Source: Raillietiella orientalis
Lineage: Eukaryota
Length of the DNA: 64,000 nucleotides
Direction of reading: 5' to 3'
Assembly (NCBI GenBank): GCA_036172245.1
Contig: JAYWIR010000001.1
Coordinates: forward strand, 2,480,001-2,544,000
The notes beneath the pieces were generated by a model, which was not told the origin of the DNA, ran no database searches, and saw only the letters and a list, made by a program, of their open reading frames with translations. Position numbers and translations under genes: made by a program. Positions 19,301 to 64,000 of this stretch are shown here, in pieces (position 1 is the stretch's first letter; the number at the start of each line of letters is the position of its first letter).

Positions 19301-20150
19301 TTGTGAGGAATGACTGTCTAGAAGGAGGACGAATCACACCACACTCTGTAGTCGATGGGAGCGGGCTGTAACCGTTCCTTTCCTGTGTCTTTTTCCAGTT
19401 CTTCCTCTATCAGAGGGCCTATGATTGCTTCAAAGTTGCCAAACAGCTCTTCATCTTTTCTTGCTTCTAGCGGGGGCATCTCAGGTATTGTTTCCACCGA
19501 CGTGTCGTCATCTCGCTTCTCTGCTTCCTGGGTATTCTCCTTTTGGGTTTCTTCCCCAAGAATATTAATGGATGGAGCTTCCATTTTCACCGTGTTTAGG
19601 TGGCATCCTCCCAGCTCGTTCATGACAGACCTGATGGTTTATTAGGCCTTTTCTCGTCGAAAAGGCCATGCCACACTCCGGTCTGGTACAGATGAGCCTC
19701 GTTGACACTCGTATTGTTACTACGGGGGCAGACGAAGAGAGTTCTCCATCACAAACATGGTGCGAGGACCTTGTTAAGTGTATATCCGCACTACATCTCC
19801 TACATTTGTATTTGTTAATACATCCTCTATTCTGTGCAGGCTTATCACGTGTTTCTTTTTCTGTACTTGGAGTCGAACTAGCGTTGCCCTTGATATATAT
19901 TCGCATCCCGCGACGCCACAGGCCATTGAGGGAGCTAATGGATAAAGTAAGATGATCGCGCGAGCTTGCGGATCCCAATCTACTTTTTCCACTGTTTCCA
20001 TTTCTTCCCTTTTTCCATCCATTTCCACTTCGAGTGTTGGTGGTAACCCTGTCAGGTTTTTTCAGACGAATGGTATCCTTCAGCATAGACAGAGGGGTGC
20101 GTTATCTACCTCTCAGGGCATTATGCACGTGCAGCCTTAGCAGTTTCACA
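16390..20150 (-). mobile_element. Degenerate REL-type non-LTR retrotransposon, NeSL/Utopia-like (zinc fingers, RT, CCHC, restriction-like endonuclease)
   Basis: Frameshifted pieces in the expected order: LLYP..CGVAGC, CRRC..HHVC, CTRPECGMAFSTRKGLINH; SWRPISI; QKGFLPFNGVLEQNFVLQ; IDFANAFGTV; GVEQGCPLS; AYADD; YKYLG; FIHATRLNLLP; CRRCG..EALSHV..RHD; PDLVL..DFCCPYE..KEKY; IIVGSLEAWDP. Ends approximate. Confidence 0.92.
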
Positions 20151-20199
20151 CAAATTTCTCTTTCCTAGCGATATAAAATAGGCACCTTGCAGAACCAAC

Positions 20200-23085
20200 G
20201 ATATTCACTCACCAAGCCGCGGCAGGAGGCAAATGTCCAGTCCGTCTCTTCGGAGTAGTGAACAGGAGGGGTTCCCTTGCGGGCTCCCTCCAGAGAAGAA
20301 ATTCCTACTAGTGGATCCTTTCCGGGTTCCCTTCGGAGAAGATGAAATGGAGAGGACCATCCCCTACCAGGGGGCTCCTCTGGAGAGAATGAGGAAGGGG
20401 ATTCTCTTCGGGGTTTCCCTTCCACAATGTAAAAGGGGAAGTCGGCGTGCTGGAGAAGAAGAATCTGGCAACAGACATCTTCTGTATCCAGTACGATGGC
20501 CACAGTCGGTACACGTCGGAGGACATCGCGAACGCCTTCCAGAGCCATTACATGGAGCATTTTTGACGAAGACATCTGTGCCCGACTAATCAAGGATTTT
20601 TTCTGCGACACCTGGAAAGACGAATGAGTGAAAACCATCGGAGGATGCTTAAAGAGGAAATCTCCGAAGAAGTGAAAGCTGCGTTTGTGGAACTTTGCAA
20701 GGATATGGCGGCGGGCACTGATAGTGTCCCCATTTTCTATCAGCGGTACTTGCATGCCTACCGACGTTTGTTCCACCAGCTAACGCTCTGCATCGGACAA
20801 GAAGGACGACTTCCTGCATCCTTCTACGAGAGTAGGATGAGATTGTTGCCGAAAGGAGGTGACCTGAATACGGTTACCCAATGGAGGTCAATCTCAATCC
20901 TGAACAGCGATGCCAAGTGGTTAGCAAAGATCTGGGCTAACCGCTTAGGCAAGGTCATGCTACAGCTCATCTCTCCCGTCCAGACATGAGCAGTGCCCGG
21001 ACGCCACATGTCGTACAATGTCAAGTGTGCCCAGGCTACCATTGCTCTCAGCCGATATATCGGTGAAAACTTGGTACTGAGTTTTACTGACATGGAGAAG
21101 GCCTTCGATACGGTGGACCATGGGATGCTGCTGAAGATTCTAGGAAGACTGAGCCTCCCAGAACAATTCAGCAACTTCGTGAAGATGATACTTGAAGAGC
21201 AACGCCTTCGGATCAAGATAAACGGGGAAGAGATAGCAGCAATCCGGAAGGAGCGAGGAGTCCGCCAAGGTGACTTCTTAGTCGGATGCTGTTTGTCATA
21301 TACATGAGGTCTTCTCATCATTCATCGAGAGAAGTGGGCACCTCCGCGGAATCACTGCCGACAATCAGAGGCTCACCCATCTGGCTTACGCGGATGAACT
21401 TCTCTTCTTCCTCAAAGAGGAGAGAGATCAGCGTACGTTTCTGGATGTGCTGGAGCTTATGGAAGAAGGATTGGGCTTAAAAATCAACGCCCAGAAAAGC
21501 CAACTTTTGCCCGTCGGAATCCTGGATCTCTACATACTCATGGAGGAAGGATTCCGAAGGAAAGGAAGGAAGGAAGGATGCCAAGTACCTGGGTGTCCAC
21601 ATTGGCGACAATTCATCGTCCCAACTATTATGGAAGGGAATCCTGGAGAAAACGGCGCAAGAAGGAGCGAAGTATACCCGTTTGGACTTTAGCCTGAAGC
21701 GGAGGGCCAACCTTTGGAACGGAGTACTCCTTCCAAAGATACTCTTCGGAGCAGCCTTCTGCAGAATGCATAAAAATACCAGAAGAGAGGTAGAAAAGCT
21801 ACAAAGGAAAACCCTCTGTAGAGGTTATCGACCGAGAGTCCGCCTCAAACCACTGTGCCGTCTATCCCGGTATCCACGGTACCGGGATGAAGTCGCTTGC
21901 ACACGCTGTGGACACCGTGGACGTGCGACAACTCCTCGACATGTCGGAAAACTGGGAAGACTGGCTGTATGCAGCGCACAGGGCTTACTCGTTGATAAAT
22001 AACTCGAGAGGACTGATGATTGCGCTGCTCGGCCGAGTGGGTGAATGGGTCACCATCGACCCAACCTGGGGACGAAAGCAGCAGCTGAAGATCATACCAA
22101 GGATCAAGAAACTCTGGCAGGAGGAATCCATCCTGGTGATCCCGTGGATGCTCCTGGTATCTCCGGATACGAGGAGCTGGATCCACCAGCGGTCCAGGGT
22201 AACCTTGCATGCAGCTCAAGCATGGAGACGAGAAGAGTACCTCCACCACTCCCGAGTACTCAGACACATTGATAGGATAGCTGGGAGATTCACCCACAGG
22301 ACCCACGAAGTGTGGGAAAACCACCACAAATTCGTGTAGTACTTTCAAGAGGGTGGTCCAGGGTAACAAAGAAAAACCTATGCCGACTAATAGTCGAAGA
22401 GGAAAAAGACACCGGTGCCCTCCAAGAAGCCACCGATCGCCAAGGGAGTGCTGGGATAAACCTGTTGGCGATCGAAAGGACGCTCAGAGTGACTTGTCAC
22501 CGGATACACAGGATAACCTCCTGATGTTTTATCATGGAGGAATCCTGTGCGGGACAACCATGAAGCTATTCACGGGAAGAAAAGATGAGACCTGCAAAGC
22601 ATGTGGAGACAAGGATACAAGACTCTACGTCTTGACTTTTCCCACAATGCAACAAGAGTGTCACACCCTCAAAAGGGTTATCGGGCTGCCCATCACATCG
22701 ACCATGGGAATTTTAGCAGGCATGTTCCAAGGAAATGGGAACGTTCCCTGTTACAATCCCATGGTGAGGATGACCATCCTCTTCATCACCGCCATCCTTG
22801 TGAGGTGATGGAAGATGAAGACCACCAGGACCGCCGTATCTCCAATGGAAACCCTGAAAGGGCTTATCCAGAAGGAGATCGGCATAAGAAACTGTGGAAG
22901 AGTACAGGCCTGGAACTACCAACATATCCTGAGAAGGATTGAGGACAACGTCTAGGCATAAACAGTTCCCCAAGTGTAGTGAACCTCAGTGTTAATCTCA
23001 CGAAGCAGACTTCCAGGTGACATAAGTATCATGATTCGAGAAAATGAATGCATGAATATGTAGAGTGAATGATAAAAGAAAATAA
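20200..23085 (+). mobile_element. Degenerate, 5'-truncated L1/Tx1-like non-LTR retrotransposon ORF2
   Basis: LLPKGGDL..WRSISILNSDAKWLAKIWANRL, Q*AVPGRHM, DMEKAFDTVDH, GVRQGD, LAYADE, KYLGV and a C-terminal CKACGDKDT. Multiple stops and frameshifts; no endonuclease domain seen. Confidence 0.9.
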
Positions 23086-23600: not shown

Positions 23601-26416
23601 GCAATCGAAGAGAGCCGCAAAAAGCTACCTCTGAACTTTTTTTTGGTGAAGGTAGAGAAATACCAAAAGGTTTGTTTGCATGGAATTTGGAGTTTTTTGA
23701 AAGCGCTTCTGGTGTCAGAATTCCTGTGATTCCTTATCTGGGAATTTAAAAATTTACACTCTTCTTGCCTTCAATAAGGAAAAAGGCTCTTCTGGTGCCA
23801 TTTCATCCCGTGATCCAATCTGCAAACCTTTCAGTTTTACTGCAGCCATTCTTCACTCTACTATCACGGAAAGCACATGGAGGAATTTCCAGAAAATGAG
23901 TGCACCCAAATATCGAAAGATGCAAGATCTGTGAATCATGGTTCCACCTCTATACTGTCTTTGCAAATCTAATGCTGTAGGCGGTGTTTGGAAGTGTTTC
24001 ATCTAAAAGCTTCCTTTTTCTTTAGACGGATGCCTTCTTGATTTATGATTTCCCTTTCTGTTCTTAGAAGCGTTCCTCAAGCCAACACTGACTTTCCCTT
24101 TCATCTTCATGTGCCTGATTTCTCGCAAAACTTTTCCCAAACAATTTTTTTCCCTAATCCCCCAGGACTTGTTACCAGTTGGAAGTGAGAGGTTTTCGTT
24201 GTCCCTTCCTCAGATACGTTTACTCTGTCTCTTCCATTGTCAGTTGTCTTTTTCTCTGTTTTGCCTCTACATTCGAGTCAACATTCCTTCCTGCCAAAAT
24301 ATCTTCATTCTTTTCCAAGACAAGAGTTCTAGCATCGCATGCTCAGTGTCTCTGTCTTCCGTCGAGGTGCCATTCTACTTGTTATCGGAACTCTTCATCC
24401 TTGAAACAGCTTACTGTGGATGAGTGAATTTGGCTTCAATGTTTGGGAACCAATGATTATTCAATGCATGAATCCATGGCATGATGGATGGTGGCATAGA
24501 AAACGGGATTTGTGATAAAATGTACATTGGTATGAAACCAAACCTTCACTTCATCTCATGTGTGAAGATTTAGGGGTTTAGAGCTCTTCATATTGAACTT
24601 TGTATCTTCTTTTGATTCAATATCCCATTAGTAGCAGCTAGACTGGGAAATTGACCTGATATTCCTTCGTCTCGGGATAGGAAGACCTGAGAACGACGTG
24701 CGGCAACATGCGTTCCACTTCCTCCAAATAAGCTCTCAATCTTTCCTCGTAAAAATGGGTACCCAGACGTGTCCGCCCTAGTGAGGAAGGGTTCAAGCGA
24801 GTTTGTGAATTCTCTGCCCAATAAGGAATGGATAGCCTAATGGAGAATGCACAGGAAGTCCACAAAGGGGAAGGTGGAACGGAAAGCTACCTCTGAACGG
24901 AAAGCAGTACTCCTACCATTCGATCCATTCTCACAACTTTTTCTTCCCGTAGTACCTGGTGGATCGGTCCCTTGAACGGTTTTAGGCAGTGGACGGCTCA
25001 ATGGAAGTCGCTCGTTTGGATCTGGCTTCTAGTGGAATCTCTCGGAGGAGCTACTGCTGCGTCTACAGGCCTTGGACAACGCCTCGTAGCTGTCTCCACA
25101 CTAACACGGAAAAAGTGCTACATGGACCCTTGCATTTTTAGCTCATGGCAAGATGAGGAGGCTCAAAGGGAGGAAGCACGCATTCTCTGCACCTTCGTTT
25201 TCCTTTTCACGTAACCCGTCATCTGTGAGGACGGAAGAAAGTCTTCTCAGTTGGATTTTTACCTCGGATGCCGAGCTGATGGCTTCACCAAGAACACCTC
25301 CTCTTGGAGCACTAAGGATCGTGCTCTGTAGGTCAAGGCACGACTGAGGGCTATTGAAGGATCAGCTCATGGTTGCAGACTCCGAATACTCCTCGGAGCT
25401 GGCATGGGGTATGAGCTGTAGGTCGGTCCTCATTTCGGACTTTGCCTGGGAAAAGGAATACACCGGAGATGAGTGCCCAGGCGGGTTGTCTGCCTGCCTG
25501 CAACGTCCATGAGCGGCGCGTGGACCTCGATGCTTCTCGATGTCGCAATTCGTTGTCGTGCCGGCCCTCACAAGCTCCACCTCCGATCTGACCCGAGTCA
25601 AGTCGAGCCAGATGCAACGAGTCTCCCTCTCCCCTCCACAACGGGAGTCGGTGACCAGCCTTAAGCCTTCCGTTTAGCGAAAGGTGGCTTATCTCGGGCA
25701 TCGAAGGTGCGGATCTTCAAGACTCTTGGGTTGTCCAAGAGAGAGCGGATTCGGGTGAAGGAGCGTTTGTCACAAGGCAAGCTTCAGGCGCGCCCGCTAC
25801 TCCGGGGGAGGAAGCGAATCGGCACCACCCTGGGCGTTTCCCGTTCCTTCGAAGGAGCCGGCGCATGAGGTGGCTCGACGGAGGAAGCAGAGCAGCTATC
25901 GCCACTGCGGCTCTTCCTTTTCGTTTGCGAAACCTTTCGATCTCTCCGTGACCTGCACTGCAGCTTTCATGCCTACTCGTTCCGCTGTTGACTTACTCTT
26001 GCTCTTGTCTCCCGCTTGTGATGCTGCTGCCGCAGCAACCAGCTGCCGGCTAGCCATCATGTCGTACGTGACGGACTCTCCGGCCCAGCAGCCCCCCGGT
26101 TCCTTCGGAGTTTTTTGGGGGAACGCTGTTCCGATGATCGCCCCTTCTCGCAGCACGCCGAGAGCACAGATCTTGGGAGCGATAACGATGTGCAAACCCT
26201 GAACACTTCCGGATTGAGGTATCCAGGAAGAATTGTCTTGGTTCTCACTTTCAAGGGTCCTACCACCTACTCCCTACTCGCTTCTTACTACAAGCAGCTT
26301 AACCGACGAAGGTTCATGGGACGTTACGTCAATCTGGTTCTGTGCGGAGAGACTGCAGCCCTGGAGTTCCAGTGTGAAGGACATCTCGACTGGCGTAGCC
26401 GGTAATCTTTTAGCGA

Positions 26417-26690
26417 CATGAGGAATCCTGGGAGGGGGGGTATACCAGAGAGGTTTAGTCGTGTAAGGAATAGAAGGGGTGGGGTGAAGAAGAAGTTGAA
26501 GGTTGGGATGTGAGTTAGTGAATGTATGTTTCTTTTTTGCAGGAGTATGATGCATCTGAGCGTGTTGATGGAATAGATAGTTAAGTATGTAATTCATATT
26601 GTGGAAGATGTGTTGATTGTGGAGGTTATTCATGCTATTTGGGAAATAGATGAATAGGTTATGAGTAATCGAATGGACGAGATAGTTTCC
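26417..26690 (-). pseudogene. nad2: NUMT: internal fragment of mitochondrial nad2
   Basis: The invertebrate mitochondrial code gives an open frame from 26677: SIRLLMTYSSISQMAWMTSTINTSSTMWITYLTIYS...LNLSGMPPLPGFLM. This contains the ND2 motifs (R.L.AYSSI..W and GLPP..GF) with two TGA=Trp codons and strong strand skew. Confidence 0.93.
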
Positions 26691-29249
26691 ATGAATCAAC
26701 CTTGTTGGACCTGCCCCACGCTATTGCTGCTGCACTCTTCGGACCGGCTTCCGTCTGCAGACTCTCCAGATACAGGGATGAGTCTCCTGGGCAGCTGCAG
26801 GACGAGTGGCTTGGCATCCGCTTCCCAGGAACGGAATCGGCAGCTCCTCGAGGAGGCTCGGGACTACCTTCCTCAACCCACCAGGGGACAGGCAGTCAGC
26901 GGGATTAAATGGCTGCTTCCTGCGAGGCATCGCTAGGGAGAATCGCGCTCCTTGTTGGATCCCCCCTTACAAGTCGAAGCACATAGATACCAAGAGCAGT
27001 CGAGAGCAGCAGTCCGGAGAGAGTTGGCCGGAAGCAAGGTCCCGGCCACTTCCTAAGGTTTCCGCTAGATGGCCACTCCGTCGGATCCAAACGGGTGGCA
27101 CCAGCGGAGCACCTGAAACCCTCGCCAAACTTCCCGGAAGAGAGAGAGTCCCTCTTCGGGAAGATCTGCTTTCTGCCCGACGGCTTCTTTCCTTTCCCCC
27201 AATCTCCCTCTCTCCTCCCCCTTCACAGCCCATCTCGAGGCTCGTTCTCTTCTCCGTGCGAGCGGACGGAGTCTTGCGTCGGTTCGCCCGCAGCATCTGA
27301 CATACTCTCTCTTACCCGTCTTGCGTGGACCGGAGAATCCCTCGTCGGCTTGACATCGCCTCTGGGAAATCGTTGGGACCCTCCTTCCTACCGCCGATGG
27401 TCGCAGAGGAGGACCATGCGGGTGGCGTCCGCTGGACGTCACCCTCATGCTCTTCCGCTGGACGCGGAGGGTGCCGACCCAGCAGGTCTGGAGAAGGAGG
27501 AGATGCGCGTTTCGGACGCTGGTGAGGGCGAGGTGGAGGCAAGAAAACCCCAGATGACGGCATCGGGCTCGTCCGCATGCGCGCCGCCTCCCTCGAACTA
27601 GCCCGTCATGGAGTTCCTGGACTTCCAGCCCTCCTTTCCGGCACTCTCGACCTGGGCCCTCGGTATGTAAAGACCTGTGGAGGAGCTCTTCCTTGCTCCC
27701 TTCTTGGTCCTATCTTGCCTCCGGAAGCAGTTCCGTGGAAGTCACGGGAGGTCGTCTCCTTGCTGCTTGATCTCGTTCCGGTCTGCTGCTCGTCCCCCAG
27801 GAGCCTTCCGTTGCATTCTGGACCAGAACAGACCCACGAGTAGGCCCTATGGGGGTAGAGCCGGCGACCCGGCCCCGGACACTCGGGAGTCGTCGACTGC
27901 TGCAGGCGCTCGGGAAGTCCCGGCAACTCGAAGTCCCGGCTCGGGAATTCCCGACAGAGCGATGGGGAGGAAGAAAAAGGGCTGCGGATGCCCTAGCTGG
28001 AAGGGGTCGGCGCAGTGGGGGCAATGTGTTGTCCTCCCCCATATGGTCCAGTGGCACTGCTGCCATTCTTCCTCCCTGCGAGACGAGATAACCTTCCATC
28101 CCTTCAGCGCCCCTCGGAATGGGGGGAGAGAGGGAAGGGGGAGAATTGGAAGTCGGCGGAGGGCGAAGGACGTCCGCTGTGCGTTCCCTTGGCGACAAAC
28201 TCGGCTAGGAGGCCGGGGACGAACCTCTCCTGGGAGCAGGAAAACAGACTGATAATGGGTGGGCGGGGAGGTCGAGCCCCATGCGGGGTCCCCCCTGTGG
28301 CTCTGGCTGGGAGCTCCTCTTCCGGGACGAGGCGCCCTCGTGAACCTCGATCGAGGGGAAAACTTGCGGATATCCCGGGCCTGCGCGATCCTTCCAATCT
28401 GGAGGGAGGAGGAGGGGGCCTTCCACCCCCTTGGGATACTCACTGGGGTGGAGGTGAGGATGGAAACGAAGGGAGAACTCGCGCGGTCGAAAACCGCCGC
28501 GAGATCTGCGCGGACGCACCTTTTTTTTTTTTTTTTTCTTTGCTCTCGGGTCTCCTGGTAACCGGCTCCCTCTATTACATGTCCCGAATGGTTTACCCGT
28601 CCCTTTCTGGCTGCATCCCCCCTTCCTCTCCCGTGAGGAAAGCTCGGAAGTGCGACCGCACCTGCCCCTCCGCCGTTGGAGACGGTCGGCAGCTGTTTTG
28701 GTTTCCGCTTCCTCGGAGACGGTCAGAAGGTCCAGCCGTGGGGTTCAAGTGGATCCTCCGCGAGCTCAGAGGGAAGAGGAGCTCTGCCTCCTCCCTTTTC
28801 CCGGCACTGGGCCTCCTCTCCCTCGAGGAGGGGGGGGAGCAGAGCCGGCGGTGAGCCGGTCAGAGGCTCCGAAAGAGAATCCTCGCGAAAAGCGCCCCCT
28901 CGTGGGAATGCTGGGAAGAAGAGCATCAGAAATCCCTCTGGCCTGGGTTCCGTGAGGGCAGCCCGCGTGAGCGTGGGCCTCAACTGTAACTTTCCTTTGC
29001 TGGGAGCCGATGAAGGGAGGAGGAGGAAGAGAGAAGTCCAAAAAAAAAAAAAAATGAGAGAGAAGGAGAGAGAGAAAGGGCGATGACGATTGTGATCTCC
29101 TTCCCTCCCCCTCTCTCTCCCGCCGGAGGATTCCTTCCCACTTTGCGGAGGACTTCGGCCGCCTCGGCAGCACACGACGAGCGGCAGCGCACCGCCATCG
29201 CCCACCACTGCTCACGTCCCTCAGACGCCCTCCCCGTGCAGCTCCGGAG

Positions 29250-32200
29250 ATGTGCGAGGACGTGCTCCTGTGGCTATTCGAAGTCACTAGCAAGGTCATC
29301 GACTGGATTAGTTTCCCGGTCTACTTCTTCGTCCTGGGGAAGAATGAGGAGCGCAAGGCGCTGAAGCAGGTAGGCCGGGAGAGTTCGGGGACGCCTTACC
29401 ATTCCCCTTCTTCCTCCTTCCCTTCCTCCCCGGAGCGGCGTGCGTTCTCGGAGGGGGGAGGAGCGAGCGCCCGCCCCGAGTCCAGCTCTCCTGCTTTCTT
29501 TTCCTTCCCGAAAAGGGAGGAGAGGGGAGCAAGAACCCCCCCCTCGCTCCTCCACGGTTCCGGTTCTCGGCCACTCTACCCCTTGCTTCTCTCACGGCCT
29601 CCCCTCCTTCCCATAGGTCCAGGTCGTGTCCTCGAGCAATGAGCAGATCACTGTTCGAAGCTCTATGACGGGCAGCCACTTCTTATCCCGGAAGCCGGAG
29701 GAGAGCTTCTGCACACTGGAGCAGGTAGTTGGAGACATGGGGCCGGCCCACTAGCGACCGCTCGCCTGCAGCTTCTGCAGCACTCCTTCCGGGCCCGGGA
29801 GCCGTGGCGACCGTGCCTGGGCTTCCGCAAGGTGGAGCGCGAACTGGAAGAGAAGGACGAGAAGGCCCAGCCGAAGGGAGCGACGAAGGTACAGTGGGTC
29901 CTCTTTCTCGCGCCTCGGCCTGCATCTCTGCCTCGAGGCCGGGCGGCGCGCGCGCGCTCCACGACCTCGCGTGTCCAGCAGGCTTCATCCTTGGGTCCCG
30001 CCGGACACGCGAGGTTGTCGCGCCGCGCGGCAGGGAGGAGGTTGTGAAGATGTGCGGGCACCATCCGATCGGATGCTTCGGCCCACTAGAGCCGGGCGAA
30101 CGCGGAGAGGCGGCCACCCGGTGACCCGCCAAGGAATGGGCGGGACAGGAACGCGCTCTGAGGAGAGCGGCCGTTTTTCCGTCCTCCGAGAGCAGCGGCG
30201 GAGGGCCGCGGGGCGTCGCTCCGCGACCTTCGTGCAGGTCCCTGCGAGGCACAAGACACGAAGCTTCCCTTGACCGCGAGACTTTTGCGGGTGCAGCCGC
30301 GCCTTCTGGGGGTCTCGGAAAGCGGCTCAGCAGCGAACGAGCTCCCTCGAGCTCGTGGACGCCTCAAGGAGAACCTGCCCACCCGCAAGGTCTCCTTTCG
30401 GGTAGCAGCCTCGAGCGGAGGCTGTGTCAGTGGGCGCATCGGAATGAGATCTCCTCCCACGCAGCCAGTCCCCCCCCGTCCGGGGAGCGTCGCGGAAGAG
30501 GTCGAGGGGGCAACAGCAGCGCCTGCTTTCCCGTGCGCAAGCCCTCGCAGAGGAGGAAAGGGTTTGCTGAGGAGAAGGTCGGCGGAGTGCCACTTCCTCT
30601 TCCTTACTTACGCCCGCGCGGGGGAACCGTCCGGCATGCGGCTGAAGCGGCTACAAACGTGCTTTCCCCTTTCCCCCTTAAGGGATGTTCAGGGAAGTTC
30701 CATCTGCGGAAGCGCGTGCCGTTCTACAAAAAACCGGTGCAGCCAAAAGTCGTTCAGGGAAAGATGGAGGTGCGCCTCTCGGAGCCATCTTGCGGCACTG
30801 CGTTGTCTCTCCCCGCTTGCCCAGCGAGTGGTTCGGCAACGCCGGAGGCCACAGGTCACAGAGTCTTCCTGCGGTTCCTGGTGCGCACTGCTCCGCCAGT
30901 GCCTGCGGTCGCCGCGAGCAGGTCCAATGGCGTGTTGCTATGGAGTCGCGAGCGCGCTGCATGCTCGCCTCTTCCTCGGCGGCGGTATGGACCAAGAAAT
31001 GAAGGATGGATACCCGAAAAAATCGGGAACTCGACTGAGGATGTTTCCTCCACACGTCTGAAATGGATAAAATCGAAGAAGCAGTGAGCCAGCGAGCCTC
31101 CCTGATGCTGAAAAGGAAACTCTTGCACCTGCTGGAGATCGAATGGTGCCTTTCCTCCCTGGTTAATGGCAGTTGGACTGCTCGATCAGACCACCAGGTT
31201 AGGCTGAAGGTCTGATCGGCATCCTGATCAGACCTTGGGAAGGAGCGGAATCAAAAGTCAAGTGGAAGCCGCCTTCGATTTTCGTGCTTGGAGCATTCGA
31301 GTGGCTCCATAGAAGGCTGGTCCGCTGCTTGATGAAGCAGTGCTGGCTGCGCCCTCCAGACTTCGATTCAGGCAGAATGCGACAAGGGTGGAGTCTGTGC
31401 TGGAGCAACTGTCTGCTCAGAGAGTGTGCTGATTTCAAAGAATGTGCCATCTTTCCTCAGGAAGGGGCGATAAATTCGTGGACGGATAGCGCTTCCACGG
31501 ATTTTCTCCTATAGACTCCTGCCGACTTGAAAACACTTGCGCAGGAAGTTTTTTCCCTTTCCTTCTTTCTTCGGGGAAGAACGCGCCTCAGTGACTCGCG
31601 TGTGTCATCGAGGGTGCTCCCTTATTCCTTTCCCTCTTCGTCACCCGAAGAAACATTTTTAATCCTTCTGAAGTACGCGTGGAATTTTCTTTCAGGACGT
31701 TCATCCGCATGCAGGAACCTCTCTTGTCACATCATCGTCCAGATTCTCATTCTCAGTGTCTTCCGCCTGCTAGAACTCTTTATTTTTCTTTTTCAAATTG
31801 GCCTTCTCTGACATGAAGCGATGGTTCCATGCCATGATTGCTGCTGAATAGGATGGCCGTCGTGGTCTTCCGGTTTCCTTTACAGTCATTCCGAATGCAG
31901 CAGGATGAAAAAGCTTACCTGTGATCATCTGAGGTCTCGCTAAGACAATGTCTTCCATAGGAAAAACGGAGAGAACAGCTTTCCTTCCAAGCTATCTATT
32001 GCCACTTGATCCATGCTTTCCGCCGAACGCAAACGTTACCGTTGGTGATCGCCTTCCCGAGGTTTTCTTACGCTGCCAGGGAGAACAAAGCTCTTTCTCT
32101 TAGAATCACAGCCCTTTTGGTAGTTGAATCATCCAAATGCTCACTTTCTTCAAGAGAGCCAACCATCCTCTGCACATTCCGCAAGCTCATTCGTAAAGCA

Positions 32201-35200
32201 TTCTGGTAGTAAGCAACCAAGGGGTAAGGTTCAATGTTTAACCGCTTTCAAGAAGTTTGAGATCTTCTCCGGTTTCCGATCGTCACGAAGCAGCAGGAAG
32301 CTGCTAACCTCAATCCATTGAGGTTGGCCGCTTCCAGAACACGTAAGGCTTCCCTCAGAAAGGCATGTCGAGTGAAGGCCTGTTCATCAGCCTTCAGCAC
32401 ATCTCAAGTTCTCTCACTGCAATTTATCAATAGATTCCAATATATCATTAAAAAGAGGGATGATTTCTTTGATCACGTGACAAATTCGTGAAACCGCAGA
32501 ATTTCTCTCATGCTGTGACGCTAGTCGAGTCTTGTATGCCCACGGGTAAGACGCATTGAGGATTCACGTTTAAAGAGAAATTGTCGACGGAACATTCCCT
32601 TCGGAAGGCGCCTTACAGAACTCGAATTCTCTCGATCAAGAAGATTTCGGACTTTCTTTTGTCGGATCGATCGGGAATGCCACTGTCATTTCCGATGAAC
32701 CGGAAAAAAGTTTTTCTCTCTCTGTGCCTCGGGCTGCGTGTCTTCTGGACCAAAAAACAATCACAGGAGATTGTGTTTTTTGGCTTTCCTTTCCAAGATT
32801 TCTGGAACATCTCCGACCTCTTAGCATCCCCCGATGGAACTTCTTCACTCTTTACCTCGCGCAAGACGATGCGAAGTCCATGCCGCGATTTGCACTCTTC
32901 CCATGACGCTCAAGAGAGAGCTTCTCCTTTCTCCTCTGCTCCTGCGGAACTACAGGCTGATATTCTGCGGCATTCGAAATTCTGCACGCTTCAGCTTGCC
33001 AAAGCTTCATCGAGAAAACTTTTCTCAGAGTCGGTAAAGGGAAGAAAAGGAAGTTTGTCATTGGTGACATCTCGGACGTTTGGTTTTTGAATTCGGAGGA
33101 AGGAATGCGCGTACGACCTCTGACCGAAGTTTCTAAAAGCAGAAGAGCGCGAAAAGGTGGAAGACGGTGGGAACGGAGGGATCTCAGTTTAAGGCATATC
33201 GAGAAGATGAGACCATAGGGATAGCAGTCTGGTTTGCAAAAGTGACCCGTGAGAAAAAAAAAAAAAAATCAAGGAAAATCGAATTGTTCGAGGTTTCGGC
33301 ACCCAAAAGCAAGGCTTGGGGACTTTCTGGCTCGCTGTCCCCATCTCTAGTACACCATTCTTCATTCTTTCGTAACACGGCGAAGCAAAACAGTCCTTCA
33401 GCGGCGCTAAAAAAAAAAAAATGAAACCATCGAAAACGGTGTTTGTGGAGGAGTTTGTGGTGGTCATAAATTTGTTCTGCGCTGAAGTCTCCGTTTCCTT
33501 CTTCCAACTTGACATCCATATGACTTCAGTGTGTTCTGGAAGATAGTTATACGTGGCTCAGTTTTCAAGAGATTGAAGAGATGATACAGAACTTCTGCAT
33601 GGGATTGAAAAGGCTCGGAGTGAAGCCAAATGATAGAATCGGCATCCTGTCCGAAACCAGAATGGAATGGTTGCTGACTGCTTTCGGCTGTTTTCTGCAA
33701 AACATCACAGGTATGCTTCGAGATATTTGATAAGAGGAAAAAAAAAAAAATTCAACGCGAACATTTCAGTCGTCACGATGTACACATCCCTGGGAAAAGC
33801 AGGAATCACCGAGATACTGAACGATTCAGGGGTGTCTCTCATGGTGACGTCCAGCTCGTTATTGAAAGGGATATTGGAAATAGTGGTTTCTATTCCGAGC
33901 ATTTCAACAATCATCTGCATAGAGGATAACTTCGGGAATGTGCCTTCTCTTCCCGAGGACATCTCAGTCAAACTTGTTGGATTCCAGGAAGTGTTAAAAG
34001 CGGGAAGGGATGACCCTTTCGGTAAGGTCTGGACACACCACTAACAAAATGCGAATTTCTTTCAACAGAAGCGAAAATCTCCAAGCCAGATGATGTTGCC
34101 GTCATCATGTACACCAGCGGGTGTACCGGGAGTCCGAAAGGAGTCAAACTTCCGCAAGAGGGCTTATTAGCGAGTCTTCGTGCTTTCGAGCAAGAAATAA
34201 CGATCCAGAAGGAAGACATATACATAGCCTACTTGCCCTTGGGGCACTCTCTGGAACTTGTTGCAGGTAGCGAAGTGCGATAAGGGAAATCCTTCTGGGT
34301 CCTTTTCTGCTTTCTCTCCTGTCCTTCCTGCTCACGGATTTTTCCTTATTTTCTTTGGCTCGCTGAGTGCTGAAGAACCGCCGCGCGCCTGGTGGCTCAC
34401 CAATCTCTTTCACACGGTTCCACGCCGCCCGAGGGCGAGTATCGTAACTCTTCAAGTTACAGGGGATACGCGTAGGGACCACCCTGTGAATGCAGGAAGG
34501 CTCCAGAGGAAGGAGTCCTTCCTTCTTACTCTTGGGAGGAAACCCTCCGCCCTGGTTGTCTCCGAAGGGACCACTGGAGGCGGCCGCTCCTCATTCCTTC
34601 TCCATAGAGAACCCGCAAGGGAGACGCTCTCAGTTTCCTCCTCCCCTGAAGAGGAATCCCGAGGGGACACTTCCCAATTTTCTCTGAAGAGTCGCTCCCA
34701 AAGGGAGCGGAGCGCTTCTTTGCACCCTGGAGAGGTGTAGGTCCACCAGCTCCGTGGTGCGAGATGGACGGCTCTATTTTGCCAACCGGAGAACTTCGAA
34801 GGGAACCAACTCCTTGAACCCTGGAAGGAATTCCTGAGGGTCGGCTTCCGATCCCGTCCAGTCAGCGAGGGCATCCGGAGACTTCTGCCAGTGCCCAAGG
34901 AACCAAGCAAGAATTCGTTCTTCTTCTTTCCAGAGCTGCTTTTCTTCACACTCGGAATCCGCATCGGGTACTCTTCCCCTACCACCATCATGGATACGGG
35001 CACCAAGCTGGCTCCCGGATGCAAGTCGGACCTCCGCATTCTCCGACCCACACTCATGACCTGCGTGCCGGTGAATGGGCAGGGCGAATCATACCCGAGA
35101 CCCTACCTCTCTTTCCTCTCCCTCAGCTCATCCTGGACCGGATTTTCCAGAAGATCACGGAGAACGTCGACCAGGCTTCCTTGCTGAAGAGAGTCATCTT

Positions 35201-36345
35201 CCGTCACTCTCTCAGGTACAGGATGCACTGGATGAGGAGGGGCTACTCCACTCCCCTCCTGGATGCACTGGTCTTCAAGAAGTTGAAGGAGATCCTGGGA
35301 GGGCGGGTCCGGACGATCGTCTGCGGGTCCGCCCCCTTATCCCACGAGACCCACGTATTCATCCAGGCGGTGTTCGGGACATACGTCCGACCGGGCTACG
35401 GCCTGACCGAATCCTGCGGGACGGCATGCTGCTGTGAAGGTGAGGGGCACCTTGCGGGGCACAGAAACAACGTGCTGGGCGTACCCAGAAGGAAATTTCC
35501 AAACGCGGATCGTGGGACACCCCAACTACTGGGTATATATCCGGCTGATCAACTGGGAAGAGGGTAAGTTCAAGGTGACCAACTCCCCGTACCCTCAAGG
35601 AGAAATCTGCATCGGTAAAGAACAAAAAGAAAACAAAAGCAGACTGCAAGCCGATTGGCCTGTGTTTCAAAAACCTCTCGCCAGGGGGTCCAGTCGTTGC
35701 CCTGGGGTACCTCCGTGACGTTCCCGAAAGCGAAAATTTCTTCCTGGAGAACGGCATGCGGTGGTTCAAGAGCGGGGACATCGGCGAGCTCCAGATGGAT
35801 GGGACCTTGAGGATCATAGGTGATTCGAAAGGTTGTCCCGGCAACGACTTCCCTCCAGACAGGAAGAAGGACCTGGTGAAGCTCCCCAACGGAGAGTACT
35901 TGTGCCTGGGGAAGATAGAAAGCCTCCTTAGGCGCTGCAAATACGTACAGAACATATGCGTCTGTGCCAACAGTCTGTTCATGAGGGTGGTGGCCATCGT
36001 GCAGCCTACAATGGAGACGCTGCCCCTCCTCAGGAGGAAGTCCATCGACACCTTGAACCAGGAGAGCGTCGTAGAAGCGGTTGTGCTGGAGGAGATTCAG
36101 AAGATGTGCAGAGAAAGTGCGCATATGGGGCGCTGCACCGAGGCGCGACACCTCCCCCCCCTTCCATTCCAGGCGGGCTGCGTAGGATCGAGACCCCCAA
36201 GCTGATCAAGCTGTGCCCGGAGCCTTGGACGGTGGAGAATGGACTGCTGACGGCTTCCCTGAAGATCCGGAGAAACGCACTGTTGAAGATGTACCGCGAC
36301 GAGATCCAGGAGCTGTTCGCGAAGATTGGGAATGCGCTCGATTAA
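29250..36345 (+). CDS. ACSL: Long-chain-fatty-acid--CoA ligase, ACSL3/4-like, paralog A (appears complete)
   Basis: Exons 29250-29369, 29617-29724, 29772-29888, 33530-33710, 33770-34021, 34069-34266, 34934-35070, 35127-35439 and further exons to the stop at 36345. Motifs ETRMEW, YTSGCTGSPKG, YLPLGH, GYGLTE, WEEG, GDIG..DGTLRIIDRKKDLVKL, LTASLKIRR. AATAAA at 36356. Confidence 0.93.
31100..32400 (-). mobile_element. Possible highly decayed L1-like retroelement remnant inside ACSL-A intron 3
   Basis: The minus-strand peptide RFLHADERPERKFHAYFRR (about 31670-31725) resembles the L1 EN-RT linker motif (W..EGER.TKYF). The rest is broken by stops. Confidence 0.3.
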
Positions 36346-37116
36346 AAAAGGAAGAAATAAAGGCAGGACTTTCCCGAGTGAAGATCCGCCGCTTGCGTTC
36401 CCGCTCTGTGGATGCTCGTCTGGCAACCAGAGGGCTCCGCAGATGAAACACCGGCGTCGCCCGCGGTGTTTGGAAACAGCTCGGGAAAAGCGTCGGGGAC
36501 CTTCTACGAGCTGACCCGAGCAGGTGCGGCCCCGCGAGCTTCCCGCCTGGTGGTGCTGCTCGAGATCGAGACTCGCGAGCAGTAGGCGGGAGACGCTAGC
36601 CGGAGGAGGAATCGCCACGCGAGGGAGATGCTCGGGAACGGCACTGAGCACGGCTTCCGTACGGGGGCACTCCTCGAAGGCATCCTTGAGGACAGCACAT
36701 AGGTGTCACTCCTTCCCCTCTCCACAAGGACCTTCCATGCTGAGCACATGCTGGCGCTGGTTCCCGTTCTGCCTTCTCGGACTGGTGCGTTTGCTTGCGC
36801 CTTGAGGAAGAAGGAAAAGGGAAGTCCCGTCGTGGCTCCCGTGTGGTGGAACTGAAATCGAAACCCACGTGTGATATTTAGTGAAATCTCCACTGAATGT
36901 TCCAAAATCCAAACTCCCTCCCCTTCTCCTCAGCAGCGTCAGGTTCACTCTGGCCACCCCTCAATGCAATGACTTCCTCATTCTTGCGCTCCTCTTGCAT
37001 TCTTCGACTGCGGAGACGAACTGCCTGCTGCAGGAACTGCAGGAACTGCAGCAGGCAGTTCCGATTCCTTCACGCTGATTGATGAGCCGGGAGGTGACCC
37101 ACATCTCGGCGACGCC

Positions 37117-37233
37117 ATCCAAAGCTTCCATTGCTTTTTTTCTTAAGTCATAACTATACGCTGCTGGCATCTTTACCTTCACTACCGTAAATCCTTATCT
37201 TACCTCTTTTGGACTATTATGAGAAAGGCTATA
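37117..37233 (-). mobile_element. Bacterial IS630-family left end plus first 18 transposase codons, Wolbachia-like
   Basis: MPAAYSYDLRKKAMEALD (ATG 37170) matches the recalled N-terminus of Wolbachia IS630 transposases. The presumed element end TATAGCCTTTCTCATAATAG begins with a TA target dinucleotide at 37233. Confidence 0.8.
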
Positions 37234-37374
37234 AAATCTAATTTTGGCTGTGGAGGTTCTGACGATATCAAGTGAAAATAAACAGCTATTATATTTTTAG
37301 TAATCAAGTAAAATAGAATGAAAGCATTTTTGATTTAAAGTACTAAACCCTCCTTCAACATCTTTTTGATATGA

Positions 37375-37551
37375 TCAGGATTTTAGAATGCCGAAGATAA
37401 TATGCAGAAGTTTACGCATTGCAGCACCAAAAATGGCCATATTATGCTCACCTTTCTCCTTTAGTCTTTGGAAAAAGCTCATAATAATAGGATTTTGATT
37501 CTTAGCTACTATGGCAGGAAAGAAAAGTGCCTTACTTAATGCTTGTGAACC
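37375..37551 (-). mobile_element. Bacterial IS110-family transposase C-terminal fragment
   Basis: GSQALSKALFFPAIVAKNQNPIIMSFFQRLKEKGEHNMAIFGAAMRKLLHIIFGILKS* matches the IS110 C-terminal pattern G...LRKALY.PA..A...NP....F..RL...GK..M..I.A.MRKL...IYG.LK. Intronless and AT-rich; not in the ORF track. Confidence 0.9.
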
Positions 37552-40500
37552 CGGTTTTTAATCTGGGTAAAGATCTGGAGAGGAGGTCGTTATCAAGCCG
37601 GCCTCCTGGAAAGCAGAGTCTCCCCTACAGACAGAACCGGTGCTGCAAGTAGGTAGCAGAGTGGCTTTCTGATCATTTTCCTTCCTTCCGAGCTCTTCAA
37701 GTTATCTGATCTTCTCGTGTGCAGCAGAGACGTGAAAAACAACCCTTCGAAGACCCAAAGATCATCGGGAGGAAAAATGTTGTTAGGAAATAACTGAGAA
37801 CAAGAAGAAAATGAGGAAACCATCTGTTCTAAAGCGCTTTGTATCTTCGAGATCAGTTGAGACTTTGTAGGCGTTCTTTGACGAAATGTGCCACCGGAGC
37901 ATGCACGTGCTGCACCTCGTTGTCGCCAGGTTGGGTTTCGAACAAAAGCAGACCCCGAGGTGATCTCCGACGTTGCAGGGGTCGTATTCGAGACTATTCG
38001 TGATTGCGTATTCGAGGCGGTTCGTGGAGGATGCCGTTCTTGAACACCGGCCGAGAGCTTGCGTTTCTCTCCTTCACCAGGAAGGAGCATTCAGGGTGCA
38101 TGCGCTGAGCTCCTGCAGTCGCCTCGGTTGAAGTAGCGTTTCCGATCCTGAAACAGGAAGCATCTTTCTTTTTGCGTAAGTTCAGCCTGCCAACCACCTC
38201 GCAAATGCAATGAATCGCTGCCTGTGCCTTTGGGGTCTTTCGGTGCTCGAAGAGGTCTGCGGAAAGTCCAGTGACCTGTCGGCACCTTCCCAACAAGAGG
38301 GAAAGGGCACGAAGGAAGATCCGCAATTCCTCGCCAACCAAGCCCTACTTCTTCCGTGTGCAAGCCCTACCAGCGACTCGAGGACGAACCCAGCATAACA
38401 TTTCAACCAAGCGGCGTTCAACGATTCTCTTGCTTCAAAAACGCAAGCGCATCCAACCTCACCTATTTCATGGTACGCGATGATGGCTGCTTCTTGTATG
38501 GTGGTGCGGGATAGCTGCTTACACGGCACAGGTGGTGGCACTCCTTAGTGCATCTGGAATTCCGAATTATCAAAGCAATGGATTCCCGTGGCATTTAGAC
38601 GATACGCTTGCTTTGCTGACTCGTTCGAATCAAATCCAAAACTCCTATTCGGGCACGAATTCACGTTGTCTAGCAGCAAACATGTAAAAAACAATGAGTG
38701 GTAAATGTAGAGCTGGACATAAGATGAAAGAAAGGAAAGAAACAGAAAGATGAAATTCTAGAAACACTCAATTATAGGAGGCTGCATTTGAATTCAAGTT
38801 CTTTACTAAAACCAGCATTGAGAGGAAGGCACGAAAGCAACTGAATAGAAGAAAATTTGGGGATAATTTTTTCCATGCAACTGACAAAGCAGTGTCGGGA
38901 GAGACAGGTAGGAGCCGTTCAAAACTTTAGTTCCAAGGTCGAACGAGAATCCAAGATAACAAGGAGCAGACGGAGATGTCAAACTTGTTCCTCACACATG
39001 AAAAATCTCTCTGGGAGTTGTGCATGTGTTAGTGAATCTAATCACCCGATTCGTCCTGGACATCGACGAAATCACCTAGGTTGCCCAAGGGTTCGAAATA
39101 AACAGTCAGTTCCTTTCTCTGGAACAAGAGAGACAGCAAATTAATGAAGCAAGCTCACTCTCATCCCACGAGGGAAGCAAAACAGCTCTGGGACGCACGA
39201 ATCACTTCCAAGGCGTCCAGTGTAAATGGAGAAAAAATGAAAATGGAAAATGGAGAAAATAGAGGAAAATGGAGTCCTTCTGCATTCCATCAAGTCCTAA
39301 TTTCTGTGAATGAATTCCTATTCTGTCTTAATAGATTTAGAGCGTTCCGCTCCAAAGTACTAATGGTAGGTGAGTCTTTTGACTTTTCCGGTGTTTACCT
39401 AAACAAGCTGTTGTAAACTTGAAGGGGGGGGGGGGGGAGAAAGGTGAGTTGTTCAGTCAAACAAATAGTGTTTCTGTGTACGCACACTTGCTGTGGGAGC
39501 ATTTACCCTCGAAGTTGTGCTCACACTTTCGTGCAGATGAATCCTACCAGCACATCGATAGTGATATGCGTGGAGCAGACACTCTACTAGATCGAAGTGA
39601 ATGACTGTTCAGAGTAAGATATTAAAATCGAGAAAATTGCATGGAAGGATTTATCCTAAAATCTCCTTCTATTCAATCGCTTTCGTGTCTTCCTCTGAAT
39701 GCTGGTTTTATTAAAGAACTTGGGTTCAAATGCAACCCCCTGGAATTGAGTGAGCTCAGACTCGATTCAGTGAGTTTCGGGTGGAAAGCATAGCAGATGG
39801 AGGTTCTCTTCAGCTGAGTTGGGACCAACTGACGTTGGAAGATTGTCATCGCAAATAAAGAGATAATCCGAGAAAACAAAAGGATACGCCACAATTCTGT
39901 CAGATTGTATGACCTGTGGTAACAAAAGCACGTAGTGGTTGGAACATCAGTTGCACAGCTACCACCCCGAAGGAGCTGGGATCGAATCGCTCCCCAAAGA
40001 CGAAGGCAATCAAGACAATGAGCTCCAAGATGGCTCCTATCTTCGAAACCTCTTGGTGTCTTATTTTCTAGGTAAGAAATTGAAAAGGAAGGAATGGTTC
40101 TCGCAAATGTCATCATGGTCTTTCATGAAGATAAGGCCTGAGGAACCCGAAGATGGGAACAGCCAGAGAAAAAGGGTGGGAACGATCAGTATTTTTCAGG
40201 CTGAAAAATCCGCACTGTGCAGGCTTCCTCTGTATGCAACTGGGCTCCCAGTGACCAAACAAAGGATTCATTTGTTTAGGACTAAAAGCACCGACTCGTA
40301 AATCTAAAGGAAGTAAACGCCAGATGTTTCCTAGATAAAATATACATAGAAAGATAACGCGAAATTTTGCAAAAGTACATGTCCACAGTAACACTATGCT
40401 CTGCCTACATCCGTTACTATTTTTTGTTTATGAAATTCAATGATGCAAATAAAATGGATAATGTAACGACATGGCATTGCATGGAATCCATGGCATTCTC

Positions 40501-41632: not shown

Positions 41633-44600
41633 CTATGCTGCCGGTGATGCTGGAGAATCGTACATCCGGAAGATATCTTCCTTGTAATAATTTTCGATAT
41701 TTCTTCTGCGTATCTTCATAGAAGGAGTCAGCATTTGGTTGCCGGGGGTCCAAGTCTCCTTGCACAGCTTCACCACTCGAGGGATTTCAAATCCTTTCAG
41801 CCCGACTACGTGGGAACCGGATGTCAGCACGAAGCACTGCCAATCGATCGACGCGACGGCGCCGGAGCGCTCTGTGCCGTTGCAGCATACGTACGCTTGT
41901 GCCCCTCTCTGCTGAGCAGATCCAGAATGGCTTGCTTCAGGGTGCTGTCTTCGTGGAGAGATTCGCAATCCCTCTTCAGCCCGATCCACTGTGCCCAGTC
42001 GGTCAGTTCTCGAGGTCCAAAGACCAGCAAGGCGATCGTGTAATTCTTGAGGGGATTCGCAACGACGCAGACGTTTTCAAGGGGAAGGATGGACTTGCAG
42101 AACTCCTCGATCTTACCGAGAACAACGAACTCTCCGTTCTGCAACTTGATTATGTCTTTTTTGCGGTCTTAAGAGGTGGAGAATTAGTGATGGCAGTAAT
42201 AACAAAGCAGCTTCTATCAAGAAACGACTGCGCACCAATGATTTTCAAGCTCCCGTCATCCAGGAACATGCCGATGTCTCCCGTCCGTATCCAACGGTTT
42301 GTTTCGTCCACATAAAAGCTGTCGTCGCTTTGCATGCCGTAATACCCGTCACAGACATTTTTTCCTCCTGGAGACAGCCCGAGGAACGTGCGGGCGAAAG
42401 AGAAACACCACTGACCTACGTGGATTTCACCGCGAGGATATGGTTTGTCTGTGACGAGGTATCCTCCTTCCTCCCAGCTTACAAGACGTATGCTGACGTC
42501 AGAGAAGGGATATCCCACCGTGCCGGGGTACTGCCATTGCTCTGCATTCGAAAAATGTGGGGGTGGTGCTGGTTTGAGGGGAAACAAAGACCTGGACAGA
42601 AGCACGAGAGTGCACTGGTCTCGGTGAGTCCGTAGCCTATCCTCACAGGTCGACCGAATGCAGCTTCGTACGACAGGTGGGAGTCAGGAGAGACGGAAGC
42701 ACCTCCTACAAGCAGGACCTTCAGTTTACCTCCAAGAGAAGACCTGGCGTCTCGGAACAGGAAGAAGTCTGTGATGGGTGTGGATTTGTGCTCCAGCAGT
42801 GCGTCCTTTTTGTATTTCAGAACCAGGTCGAAGAGCTGCCTCCCCCCCATCGAATTGGATAGAAATCTGCTTTGGACCGCGTTGAACATCCTACCCAGAA
42901 CCAGCTGCAAAAAAAAAAAAAAAAAAAAAAAGAAACCAGATCACCTGCTCCATGTGCCCGGAGCCTGCTCTTACGGGAACACTCGAAACCCTTGTGGGTT
43001 TCAGAACTCTCATGTCGCCCTTGGAGCCTGGGGCCAGCTTGACTGAATCGTCTAGCAAGGTAAAGGGGGAGGAGAAGCCAAGCAAGGCACCAGCTAGGAA
43101 TGCGTGGAAGTCTGGAACGCATAGCTGTTCCCGACTTTCCGTGGGCCCTTTCACCTGTGATGAACCCAAAAATATGTGCCATCGGGAGATTACACAAGTG
43201 CAGATCAGCACTGGACAATCCCAAGTCCTGAGAGGCCGTCTGCAAGGCTGACACCAAATTGGAATGGAGAAAGCTTGCTCCTTTCGGTTTCCCAGAGGAA
43301 CCGCTAGTGTACATCACCATGGCAACGTCTTCCGCTCTCGCAGGCACTTCCTCTGCATGAGACGCCGCGAGTTTCGGTAATTTTCCTGGTTCCCATATCA
43401 CCCAAGCGAAGATCCTTCGCTGATTCGATAGCTTGACTCATCCTGAAGATTTGCACGGATTTCTCGGATCCCGGATGCTTGGTCTGGAGCAGAGGATCGT
43501 CGAAAACCATTATGCAGTTTAGATCCGGAGCGTGGCTGAGGATCCGCAGCACCGTGCCGAGCAAGCTTTCTGTTGTCAGCAGGTGAGTGGCTTTGTTTTC
43601 TCTCAGAATCTGCACTATGCCTTCATCTGACAACGTCGTAAAAATGGTGACTACTGCAAAAGAGCACGTCCTCAGTTAGATATTGCCCCCTCCCTCCCTC
43701 CCCCCTTTCAGAAAAAAAAGAAGGAAAAGAAAAGTCACTCGTAATGTTCTGCAAGAAGCAAGCACAGGCTGCCAGAATCCACTCCAGTCTTGTTTCAGAA
43801 AAGATAACTAATCTGTCCTTTGCGTGAACGCTCAGTTTTCTGAAAGCTTTGCTCATGTCTTCAACTTTACAACGAAAATCCTGTAAAGTCATCCATCTGT
43901 ATTCGTCTTCGAATACGTACTGAAGTGCATCAAACAATGAGTAACTACAGTGAGAAAGTGTCTCTCTTTGCAACGGTTGAAACAGAAATAATCAGACTGG
44001 CAAAGCTCTGCTTCGAAAGCAGCCTTCCCGACTGCTGCTGCTTCTCCCCAGCGCCATGCCAGGAATTTCACCAAACACAGCAAACTCGATCGGGAAAAAG
44101 AGTTTTGGATGAACATCCCAACAACCGCCTGTCTCTTTTCTGCTGACCGGAGTGGCAGTAAAGAGCATGCCCGATGGCCTCGTCGCCAAACGCATTCACC
44201 CGAATATTTCGAAATTCTGACGTTCAAGAAAGTCGCAAGATCACACGGACACTCGCTCGTAGTTCGGGATCATTAACTTCCTGAACCTTCCCTTTTGAAT
44301 ATGTGGGCAGGTTTATGAGCATTTTCGTACGCGGAAGTCCATTTGCGGATCGTTTCCTCGATTGCCTACGTGAGACCATAAGGAAGCTTCTCTTTTTATG
44401 ACATACGTTGAAATCCGTACCCATTTCATTTTGATGTTTCGACGTTTGGTGCTTTTTGCCCGAGGAAACGCATGCGCTAGAAGCACACAACGCAACACAA
44501 AACAGGGAATCGGTCGGTGAAATCAAGAATCACGTTACTGCGTAATACAATATTCTCTTTAAGAATATCGACGTGATTATGCAGTAGTATGGGGCTTCAT

Positions 44601-59629: not shown

Positions 59630-62469
<2,840 letters not shown>

Positions 62470-64000
62470 CTGGAATGGGGAGAGTCCGCTGATGGTAAGC
62501 AGGAACCAAGAGAGACACTCGAACCGACCCCCGATGGCACGGAGGGGGTTCCTGGACGACAGCGGGGAGTCGGGCAGGCCGCGTGTCCCCGGAGCGCCGT
62601 CCCGCCGCCGTTTACGCCCCAATCCGACGGCAGAGGGGCGCGCGCCACTTCGCGCGAATGCGTGCCTGCCTGGTCTCCCCTCGAGACGGGGATATATCGG
62701 GGCGCCGGCGTGACCAGCTCGGGGAAAGCGCGAGGCGACACGGGGGAGTCCCTCCAAAACCTGGGGATGACAACTCCCCCATCCCGGACTGAGCGCAACC
62801 GAGCGCGAAGGAACTCGCGGGGGGGAACCTTCAGGGAGAGTCCTGAAGAATCTCCCGTCTCCACCCGGGTCTGCTGCTGCGGTTCGAGGGGGGGAGTCAC
62901 CGCGGACTTTCTAGGGCGTCCACGACGCGTTCAAGGGCACTCGAGAAGTGGAAGGAGGAGTGAAAACCAAACGCAAAGGACGCTCTGCTCCGTACCCAAG
63001 ACAGGCGTTGAGGAGACTTGCGTGCGCTGCTGGTGCTTGGAGGATCTTCGTGGCACGGACGCTCCTCCGTCTTTCAAAGGGGACGCCGAAGAAGCTCGCA
63101 GATCGCCTCCCACCGCCTCGACAGATAACAAGCAGCTCGTATGAAAAGGGAATTACTAGGACTTTTTCGTCCTGCTTTGAAGAGACTTCCCTTCTCCCTT
63201 TCCAGGACGGCTTTTCCATGTAAGGGCCGTGGGAGCGGAAGGAAAAGGGGGTTCCCAAGATGCCAATCGGAAATGTGTTGCATCCGGCTGCAGATGAAGT
63301 TGGGCGGGCAGATCCAGAGAAGGTCGGGGATGGGCATTTCGAGAAGCGCTGAAGTCTTGGGCGGCTTCCGAAAGAGGGGGGGGGGGGACAGAGCTCAACC
63401 TCCGCACTGGAGAACGTTGGGGAAGTCAGGCCGCCAAGGAAGAATCGGTCTCATTCTCAGAACAGGGGAGGGTCCGGCTGCGTGCAGAGAGGAACTTCCG
63501 GGACCTCCAGAGTCTCCCATTTCCCTCGATCAACGACACTAGCCGTCTACCGTCACTCCTACCCCTCTGTTCTCAAGCACGAATGCCTTCCGCACCCCAC
63601 TCCCAGCGACTCCTCTTTCCTACAAGAGCCCCGTTTCGGCGGACGAAAAATCCTCGAGGAGCTCCGGGCTTGGGAGCTGAAAATCCCCTGCCATCATTGT
63701 TCCAGCGCGCGTGCGGAGAGGGAGCCAAACAAGCAGAGGAGATGGCCGATGAGGCGCGTTTGGAGCCAGAGGCGATGCGGAGATGGCGCATTTGGTGCTG
63801 GATGGTCCAGAGTCGGCAGGAGGCTGCTGCTACAAGCGCGGAGAGAGAAATGCGAGGGTCTCGTTTCGACGGTGACGGGAATCTCCCTGGGTTCTTCCCT
63901 GCTCCGCTGCTTTCCTTCCAGCTTTTTCTCTTTTCTCAGTTCGCAAGGAGTGCTGGATGACCGTTCGCATCTTAAGGGAGGGGGAAGGGTCGTGAAACCC

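Follow-up and report, generated by a model that had tools for sequence, protein, structure and literature searches.

A probable small nuclear Wolbachia transfer between two acyl-CoA ligase genes of an arthropod-like animal

A short island of bacterial-looking DNA between two animal genes raises the question of where it came from and whether it is a real part of the host chromosome. The window, that is, the whole 64-kb stretch of Raillietiella orientalis DNA analysed here, is intron-bearing animal DNA that includes a RAD54-like helicase exon (76–81% to many animals), an ARID exon, an ACSL4-like exon (42–50%) and R2-like reverse transcriptases. The initial annotation had placed an AT-rich island of about 450 bp, in GC-richer flanks, inside an animal acyl-CoA ligase cluster, and both observations stand. 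ACSL4-like genes map on both sides of the island by tblastn (Table 1), and the island itself occupies 37117–37568 of the minus strand (452 bp) and consists of three collinear parts. ACSL4-like copies 1 and 2 are convergent. The island lies in the 5.3-kb interval between their 3′ ends, about 770 bp past the stop codon of copy 1; the 3′ end of copy 2 is 4.1 kb away.

Table 1. Features of the island and of its host surroundings (window coordinates).
Feature	Position	Strand	Basis or remark
Host ACSL4-like gene, copy 1	33545..36348	+	tblastn exons 33545–36327, reaching residue 807–809 of 811; ORF end
IS630-family left end: terminal repeat, leader, first 18 codons	37117..37233	-	Homology to Wolbachia copies; cut at host junction
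Single-copy Wolbachia intergenic spacer, coaE / nitronate-monooxygenase-like gene, 93 bp	37232..37324	-	DNA homology, gene context
IS110-family 3′ fragment: transposase gene end and 3′ non-coding DNA	37309..37568	-	DNA homology to Wolbachia copies
60-aa open frame	37375..37557	-	Equals residues 262–321 of 344-aa IS110 transposase; remnant, no gene
Host ACSL4-like gene, copy 2	41654..43904	-	tblastn exon map; weak AMP-binding Pfam match, E 5.6e-4
Third ACSL4-like paralogue	59633..62454	-	tblastn

The three divergent ACSL4-like paralogues lie within 29 kb, and in tblastn comparisons the identity of each with named animal ACSL4 proteins is only 26–57%; they look like a lineage-specific expansion. 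Further to the left, at 16500–22900, there are remnants of R2-like non-LTR reverse transcriptases on both strands (RVT_1), whose best relatives, at 32–38%, are found in ticks and spiders. These protein comparisons show no database sequence closely related to the host and identify it as an animal, probably an arthropod. Pfam searches with 10 ORFs, eight from the non-coding sequence at 36.1–41.6 kb and two over C-terminal ACSL exons, gave nothing meaningful and revealed no further decayed bacterial genes. Self-comparison of the flanks found no repeat within the window to act as an empty site. A 44-nt near-perfect palindrome (37018–37061; 38 of 44 positions self-complementary by blastn) lies 56 nt to the left of the island. 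Since palindromes are prone to breakage, this one may, as a matter of speculation, explain why foreign DNA was captured at the site.

Base composition sets the island apart from its immediate surroundings, with 33.7% GC in 37117–37570 as against 59.2% on one side (36350–37116) and 51.4% on the other (37571–38600). AT-richness is not unusual in the window, however, as positions 1–15 kb have 36% GC, and low GC by itself is therefore ordinary here; it is homology that carries the weight for the island. The window's compositional mosaicism is strong for an invertebrate-like genome. Sequences at 25000–31000 and 59800–63000 have 60–65% GC and a CpG observed/expected ratio of 0.8–0.85, and adjoin 36% GC sequence with a ratio of 0.55 (1–15 kb).

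Read 5′ to 3′ on the minus strand, the island comprises the IS110 fragment, the spacer from between coaE and a nitronate-monooxygenase-like (NMO-like) gene, and the IS630 head. DNA comparisons, each with a single genome, gave E-values of 9e-71, 2e-34 and 9e-39 for these parts, respectively, which excludes chance similarity. All three are present in the 98-genome family to which Wolbachia belongs, with best identities of 89–94% among the matches listed, and 62 of the 98 genomes gave a match at E ≤ 0.001 in the family-wide DNA scan. When the 60-aa peptide was compared with one genome per prokaryote species, 37 loci were returned. The top of this species-wide scan was held by Wolbachia of Cantharis cryptica (85% amino acid identity) and a ‘Rickettsiales’ MAG (87%) that belongs to the same 98-genome family as the Wolbachia sp. 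genome, while the strongest matches outside these genomes (E 2e-21 or better) were at most 63% identical. Sequence comparison thus bears out the Wolbachia origin that had been proposed, by placing Wolbachia and same-family genomes on top at both the protein and the DNA level, and all three parts of the island are clearly Wolbachia-derived.

Searches beyond the island and beyond chromosomes yielded little. A plasmid collection gave only a 61-nt match, on a Paracaedimonas plasmid and under no annotated feature. The rest of the 64 kb, compared at the DNA level with four Wolbachia-family genomes, produced one marginal AT-rich match of 53 nt (11444–11496, E 1.6e-4), and tblastn with IS110, IS630, coaE, NMO-like and RNase D-like proteins found nothing in the 64-kb window beyond the island.

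The IS110 part is cut on its 5′ side at the host junction, and on its other side it is broken about 70 bp before the true right end of the element. It is 79% identical over 260 nt to the copy in genome G002 (the comparison with E 9e-71), and its coding part reaches up to 89% DNA identity with the G077 copy in the family scan, among the matches listed. In two Wolbachia phage WO records of wMel, a gene labelled ‘mobile element protein’ shows 80.7% identity to this part. The 344-aa protein of the wMel phage carries DEDD_Tnp_IS110 and Transposase_20 and is a bona fide IS110 transposase; the 60-aa frame matches it at 72% identity (E 7e-30) and the G077 copy at 86.7%. Proteins with a Transposase_20 domain match the frame at 72–87% pairwise identity, but neither island peptide, this frame or the IS630 head, has a Pfam match of its own. 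The NCBIfam model transpos_IS110 gives the frame a sub-threshold match (E 1.8e-4; 20.8 bits against a cut-off of 140) at model positions 279–339 of 343. The N-terminal part of IS110 was not found in the window by tblastn, and the DEDD domain is absent. Rfam returned no family for the whole window, and thus no bridge-RNA-like or other RNA.

Relative to all seven bacterial copies aligned, the island's IS110 part has deletions of 2, 17 and 12 nt. The 17-nt gap removes the last 23 codons of the transposase, and DNA homology continues beyond it. The initial annotation had counted 58 C-terminal residues of an IS110 transposase. These residues are near-C-terminal rather than terminal, the final 23 codons having gone with the 17-nt deletion. 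That the fragment is a relic, as had been thought, agrees with the lack of the DEDD domain and with all three deletions. The deletions could predate the transfer, since Wolbachia genomes hold many defective IS copies (PMC3205602, in part). Among bacterial copies, four of the five IS110 loci in the genome of Wolbachia of Cantharis cryptica (G001; L041, L048, L050 and L051) contain an element of about 130 bp, located about 160 nt past the IS110 stop codon and bounded by IS630-like inverted terminal sequences. This element looks like an IS630-derived MITE, and it is missing at the matching position in the IS110 copies of G002 and G003.

At the opposite end of the island, the IS630 head is 78% identical at the DNA level to the G001 copy and, over parts of its length, 87–89% identical to G094 and 93–94% to G079 and G067 (these last three among the matches listed). 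Its peptide, MPAAYSYDLRKKAMEALD (37170..37117, minus strand), is identical at 18 of 18 residues to the start of the IS630 ORF in G001, an ORF that matches HTH_Tnp_IS630 (E 9e-14) and then continues in DDE_3 frames. The terminal 27 nt of the head correspond to the opposite end of the G001 copy, inverted, at 23 of 27 positions; a single end is present in the island. An IS630 terminus and peptide on the same strand as IS110 had already been reported, and both were recovered here, the terminus being the left end. With its 18 codons, the head has no HTH or DDE domain, and tblastn found no DDE remnant in the window.

An IS110 piece and an IS630 piece on one strand had thus been correctly recognised, but the Wolbachia chromosomal spacer between them had been missed. 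Its first 16 nt are shared with the IS110 part, and it includes the first 7 nt of the NMO-like gene. Identity is 94% to G051, 92% to G077, 91% to G002 and G071, and 90% to G003, the genome titled Wolbachia sp. (among the matches listed). The spacer is present in at least 15 of the 98 family genomes, at one place per genome among the matches listed. In three Wolbachia-family genomes it is flanked by coaE on one side (Pfam CoaE, E 2.5e-30) and by a gene of 467–474 aa with an NMO domain on the other. It is ordinary single-copy chromosome and no mobile element.

The internal junctions indicate how far this arrangement can be traced to the donor. At the boundary between spacer and IS630, homology to uninterrupted Wolbachia sites ends exactly at a TA and the IS630 terminal sequence begins there; IS630 copies of other family genomes start matching at this base, within 1 nt, among the matches listed. 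TA target duplication is established for IS630/Tc1-mariner elements. Judged by the homology on its two sides, this junction is an authentic IS630 insertion point in the donor bacterium, so that at least the spacer and the IS630 head would have been contiguous there. The switch from IS110 to spacer takes place about 70 bp before the IS110 element ends, in a 16-nt stretch compatible with both partners; this stretch matches the chromosomal site of G003 at 16 of 16 positions and resembles the IS110 sequence at that point. Such a switch suggests that the pieces were either rearranged in the donor or joined through microhomology as they integrated. Neither junction was found in the 98 family genomes, and the donor arrangement is therefore a reconstruction rather than an observation.

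The possibility that the IS110 part ends at the element's true terminus was rejected, as 21 bacterial copies extend past this point in a conserved tail of about 70 bp. In 20 of the 21, the sequence runs on directly into this tail, which is absent from the island. The remaining copy, L044 (G001:C1:675024-678219), has the same tail after an 860-bp insertion (locus 1794–2653), which with a 5-nt overlap sits exactly at the base where the island's IS110 homology ends; the other four IS110 copies of G001 are otherwise identical to it.

Related sequence also occurs in public data. Run X1 (share 0.04), the single public run found, covers just 37116–37324 of the window and no host flank. Hundreds of its short contigs lie over the IS630 head, which accounts for most of the 974 contigs aligned in total; 363 of the 974 show at least 99% identity. 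The spacer is contained in one contig of 1767 bp. Left of 37116, where the window becomes host, the X1 contigs run into different sequence. Coverage of bacterial parts without host flanks indicates a related bacterium, not this locus. Summed contig depth, which is not copy number, is about 176,000 over the IS630 head (37116–37234) and about 155 for the spacer contig, which may mean that this IS630 end, or a MITE derived from it, is present at very high copy number in the sample. Metagenome contigs contained no match to a 32-mer spanning the left host/IS630 junction.

Taken together, the homology makes it probable that the island is a small nuclear Wolbachia transfer (nuwt), whose junctions to the host are those of the assembly. 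In the donor, an IS630-family element would have inserted at a TA on one side of the coaE/NMO-like spacer, while a rearranged IS110-family copy bordered the spacer on its other side. The fragment would have been released by breakage inside both IS copies, so that no more of them was carried along than a 3′ piece of IS110 and the initial ~117 bp of IS630. In an arthropod-like animal, this 452-bp fragment would then have been inserted by end-joining into the intergenic DNA of the convergent ACSL4-like pair, to persist as an inert relic that keeps its bacterial base composition and has no intact transposase domain. We infer both this mechanism of integration and the correctness of the assembly at the locus.

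Both IS fragments are cut off at the edges of the island, which argues for the capture of a chromosome fragment rather than transposition. The capture of a block of symbiont chromosome had been put forward in the initial annotation, and it is reinforced by the single-copy chromosomal spacer between the two truncated copies. The Tc1/mariner superfamily, of which IS630 is a member, works in eukaryotes, and active movement of a bacterial IS630 or IS110 into an animal genome can be imagined on that ground. It is scarcely credible for this island, where each element has a single end, neither retains a catalytic domain and non-mobile chromosomal sequence separates them. An assembly artefact is a more substantial alternative: reads of a living Wolbachia might have been mis-stitched into a host contig, with no nuclear insertion. 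Arthropod data sets often contain symbiont reads, the host junctions come from an assembly, and the bacterial base composition retained by the island would fit. An error of this kind is nevertheless quite unlikely, given that the island is only 452 bp long, that tens of kilobases of coherent host sequence, including paralogues of one gene family, extend on both sides with no N in the window, and that the IS110 part has three private deletions. Both ends also fall at arbitrary positions inside IS copies, and nothing further that is Wolbachia-like is attached.

A variant of the transfer itself concerns the linkage of its pieces. The IS110 piece and the combined spacer and IS630 piece might have been unlinked in the donor and joined through the 16-nt microhomology upon entry into the host. 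The early end of the IS110 homology, which leaves out the last ~70 bp of the element, its position within the 16 shared nucleotides and the absence of the IS110/spacer junction from the 98 family genomes all fit such a mosaic. Absence from reference genomes is weak evidence, however, as the spacer/IS630 junction is likewise unseen in them. Bacterial rearrangements at IS copies are common, and the 860-bp insertion in L044, at the very same base, indicates that this site is disrupted within bacteria too. A mosaic origin is accordingly somewhat unlikely, if less so than an artefact.

If the island is a nuwt, it points to germline contact of the host lineage with Wolbachia, and we infer that this lineage was, or still is, infected. 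The presence or absence of the insertion, with its two precise junctions, provides a discrete marker for dating that contact across related species. A more tentative reading, possible but open to doubt, is that the fragment is a fossil of an unsampled and perhaps vanished Wolbachia strain, which would preserve an arrangement of IS110, coaE-NMO spacer and IS630 that is absent from the 98 family genomes. If true, no other record of that infection would exist, and the island could serve as a marker for dating it, given a comparable orthologous locus in sister species. In practical terms, the island would yield false-positive Wolbachia signals in PCR or read screens that target IS110 or IS630. Mechanistically it reveals nothing new: such transfers are common and well documented, and the island is a small new instance of them.

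Comparison with known systems places each part of the island in a familiar context. In Wolbachia, IS110 and IS630 are both common IS families, IS110 being one of the most frequent, and most copies are defective (PMC3205602, in part). With the Wolbachia IS110 elements (groups ISWen2, ISWpi12-14 and IS110-wA; Cerveau et al. 2011), the island shares a C-terminal transposase region and 3′ non-coding DNA at 79–89% identity, but it lacks the DEDD domain, the final ~70 bp and both termini, and keeps only about 260 bp out of some 1.6 kb. Likewise, it shares with the Wolbachia IS630 elements ISWpi10 and ISWpi11 the terminal sequence, the leader, the first 18 codons and insertion at TA, but it has only ~117 bp of them and no HTH or DDE domain. 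Compared with the known nuwts of arthropods and nematodes, the island is very small and stands alone in its 64 kb; besides the intergenic spacer it contains two IS fragments but no gene of cellular function, and its junctions are here those of an assembly. In the mite Tropilaelaps, short Wolbachia gene fragments have been confirmed by junction PCR (PMC5467014, in part). What the island has in common with the nuwts of arthropods and nematodes is Wolbachia chromosomal DNA that, here in the assembly, lies in host nuclear sequence, is non-functional and has bacterial composition.
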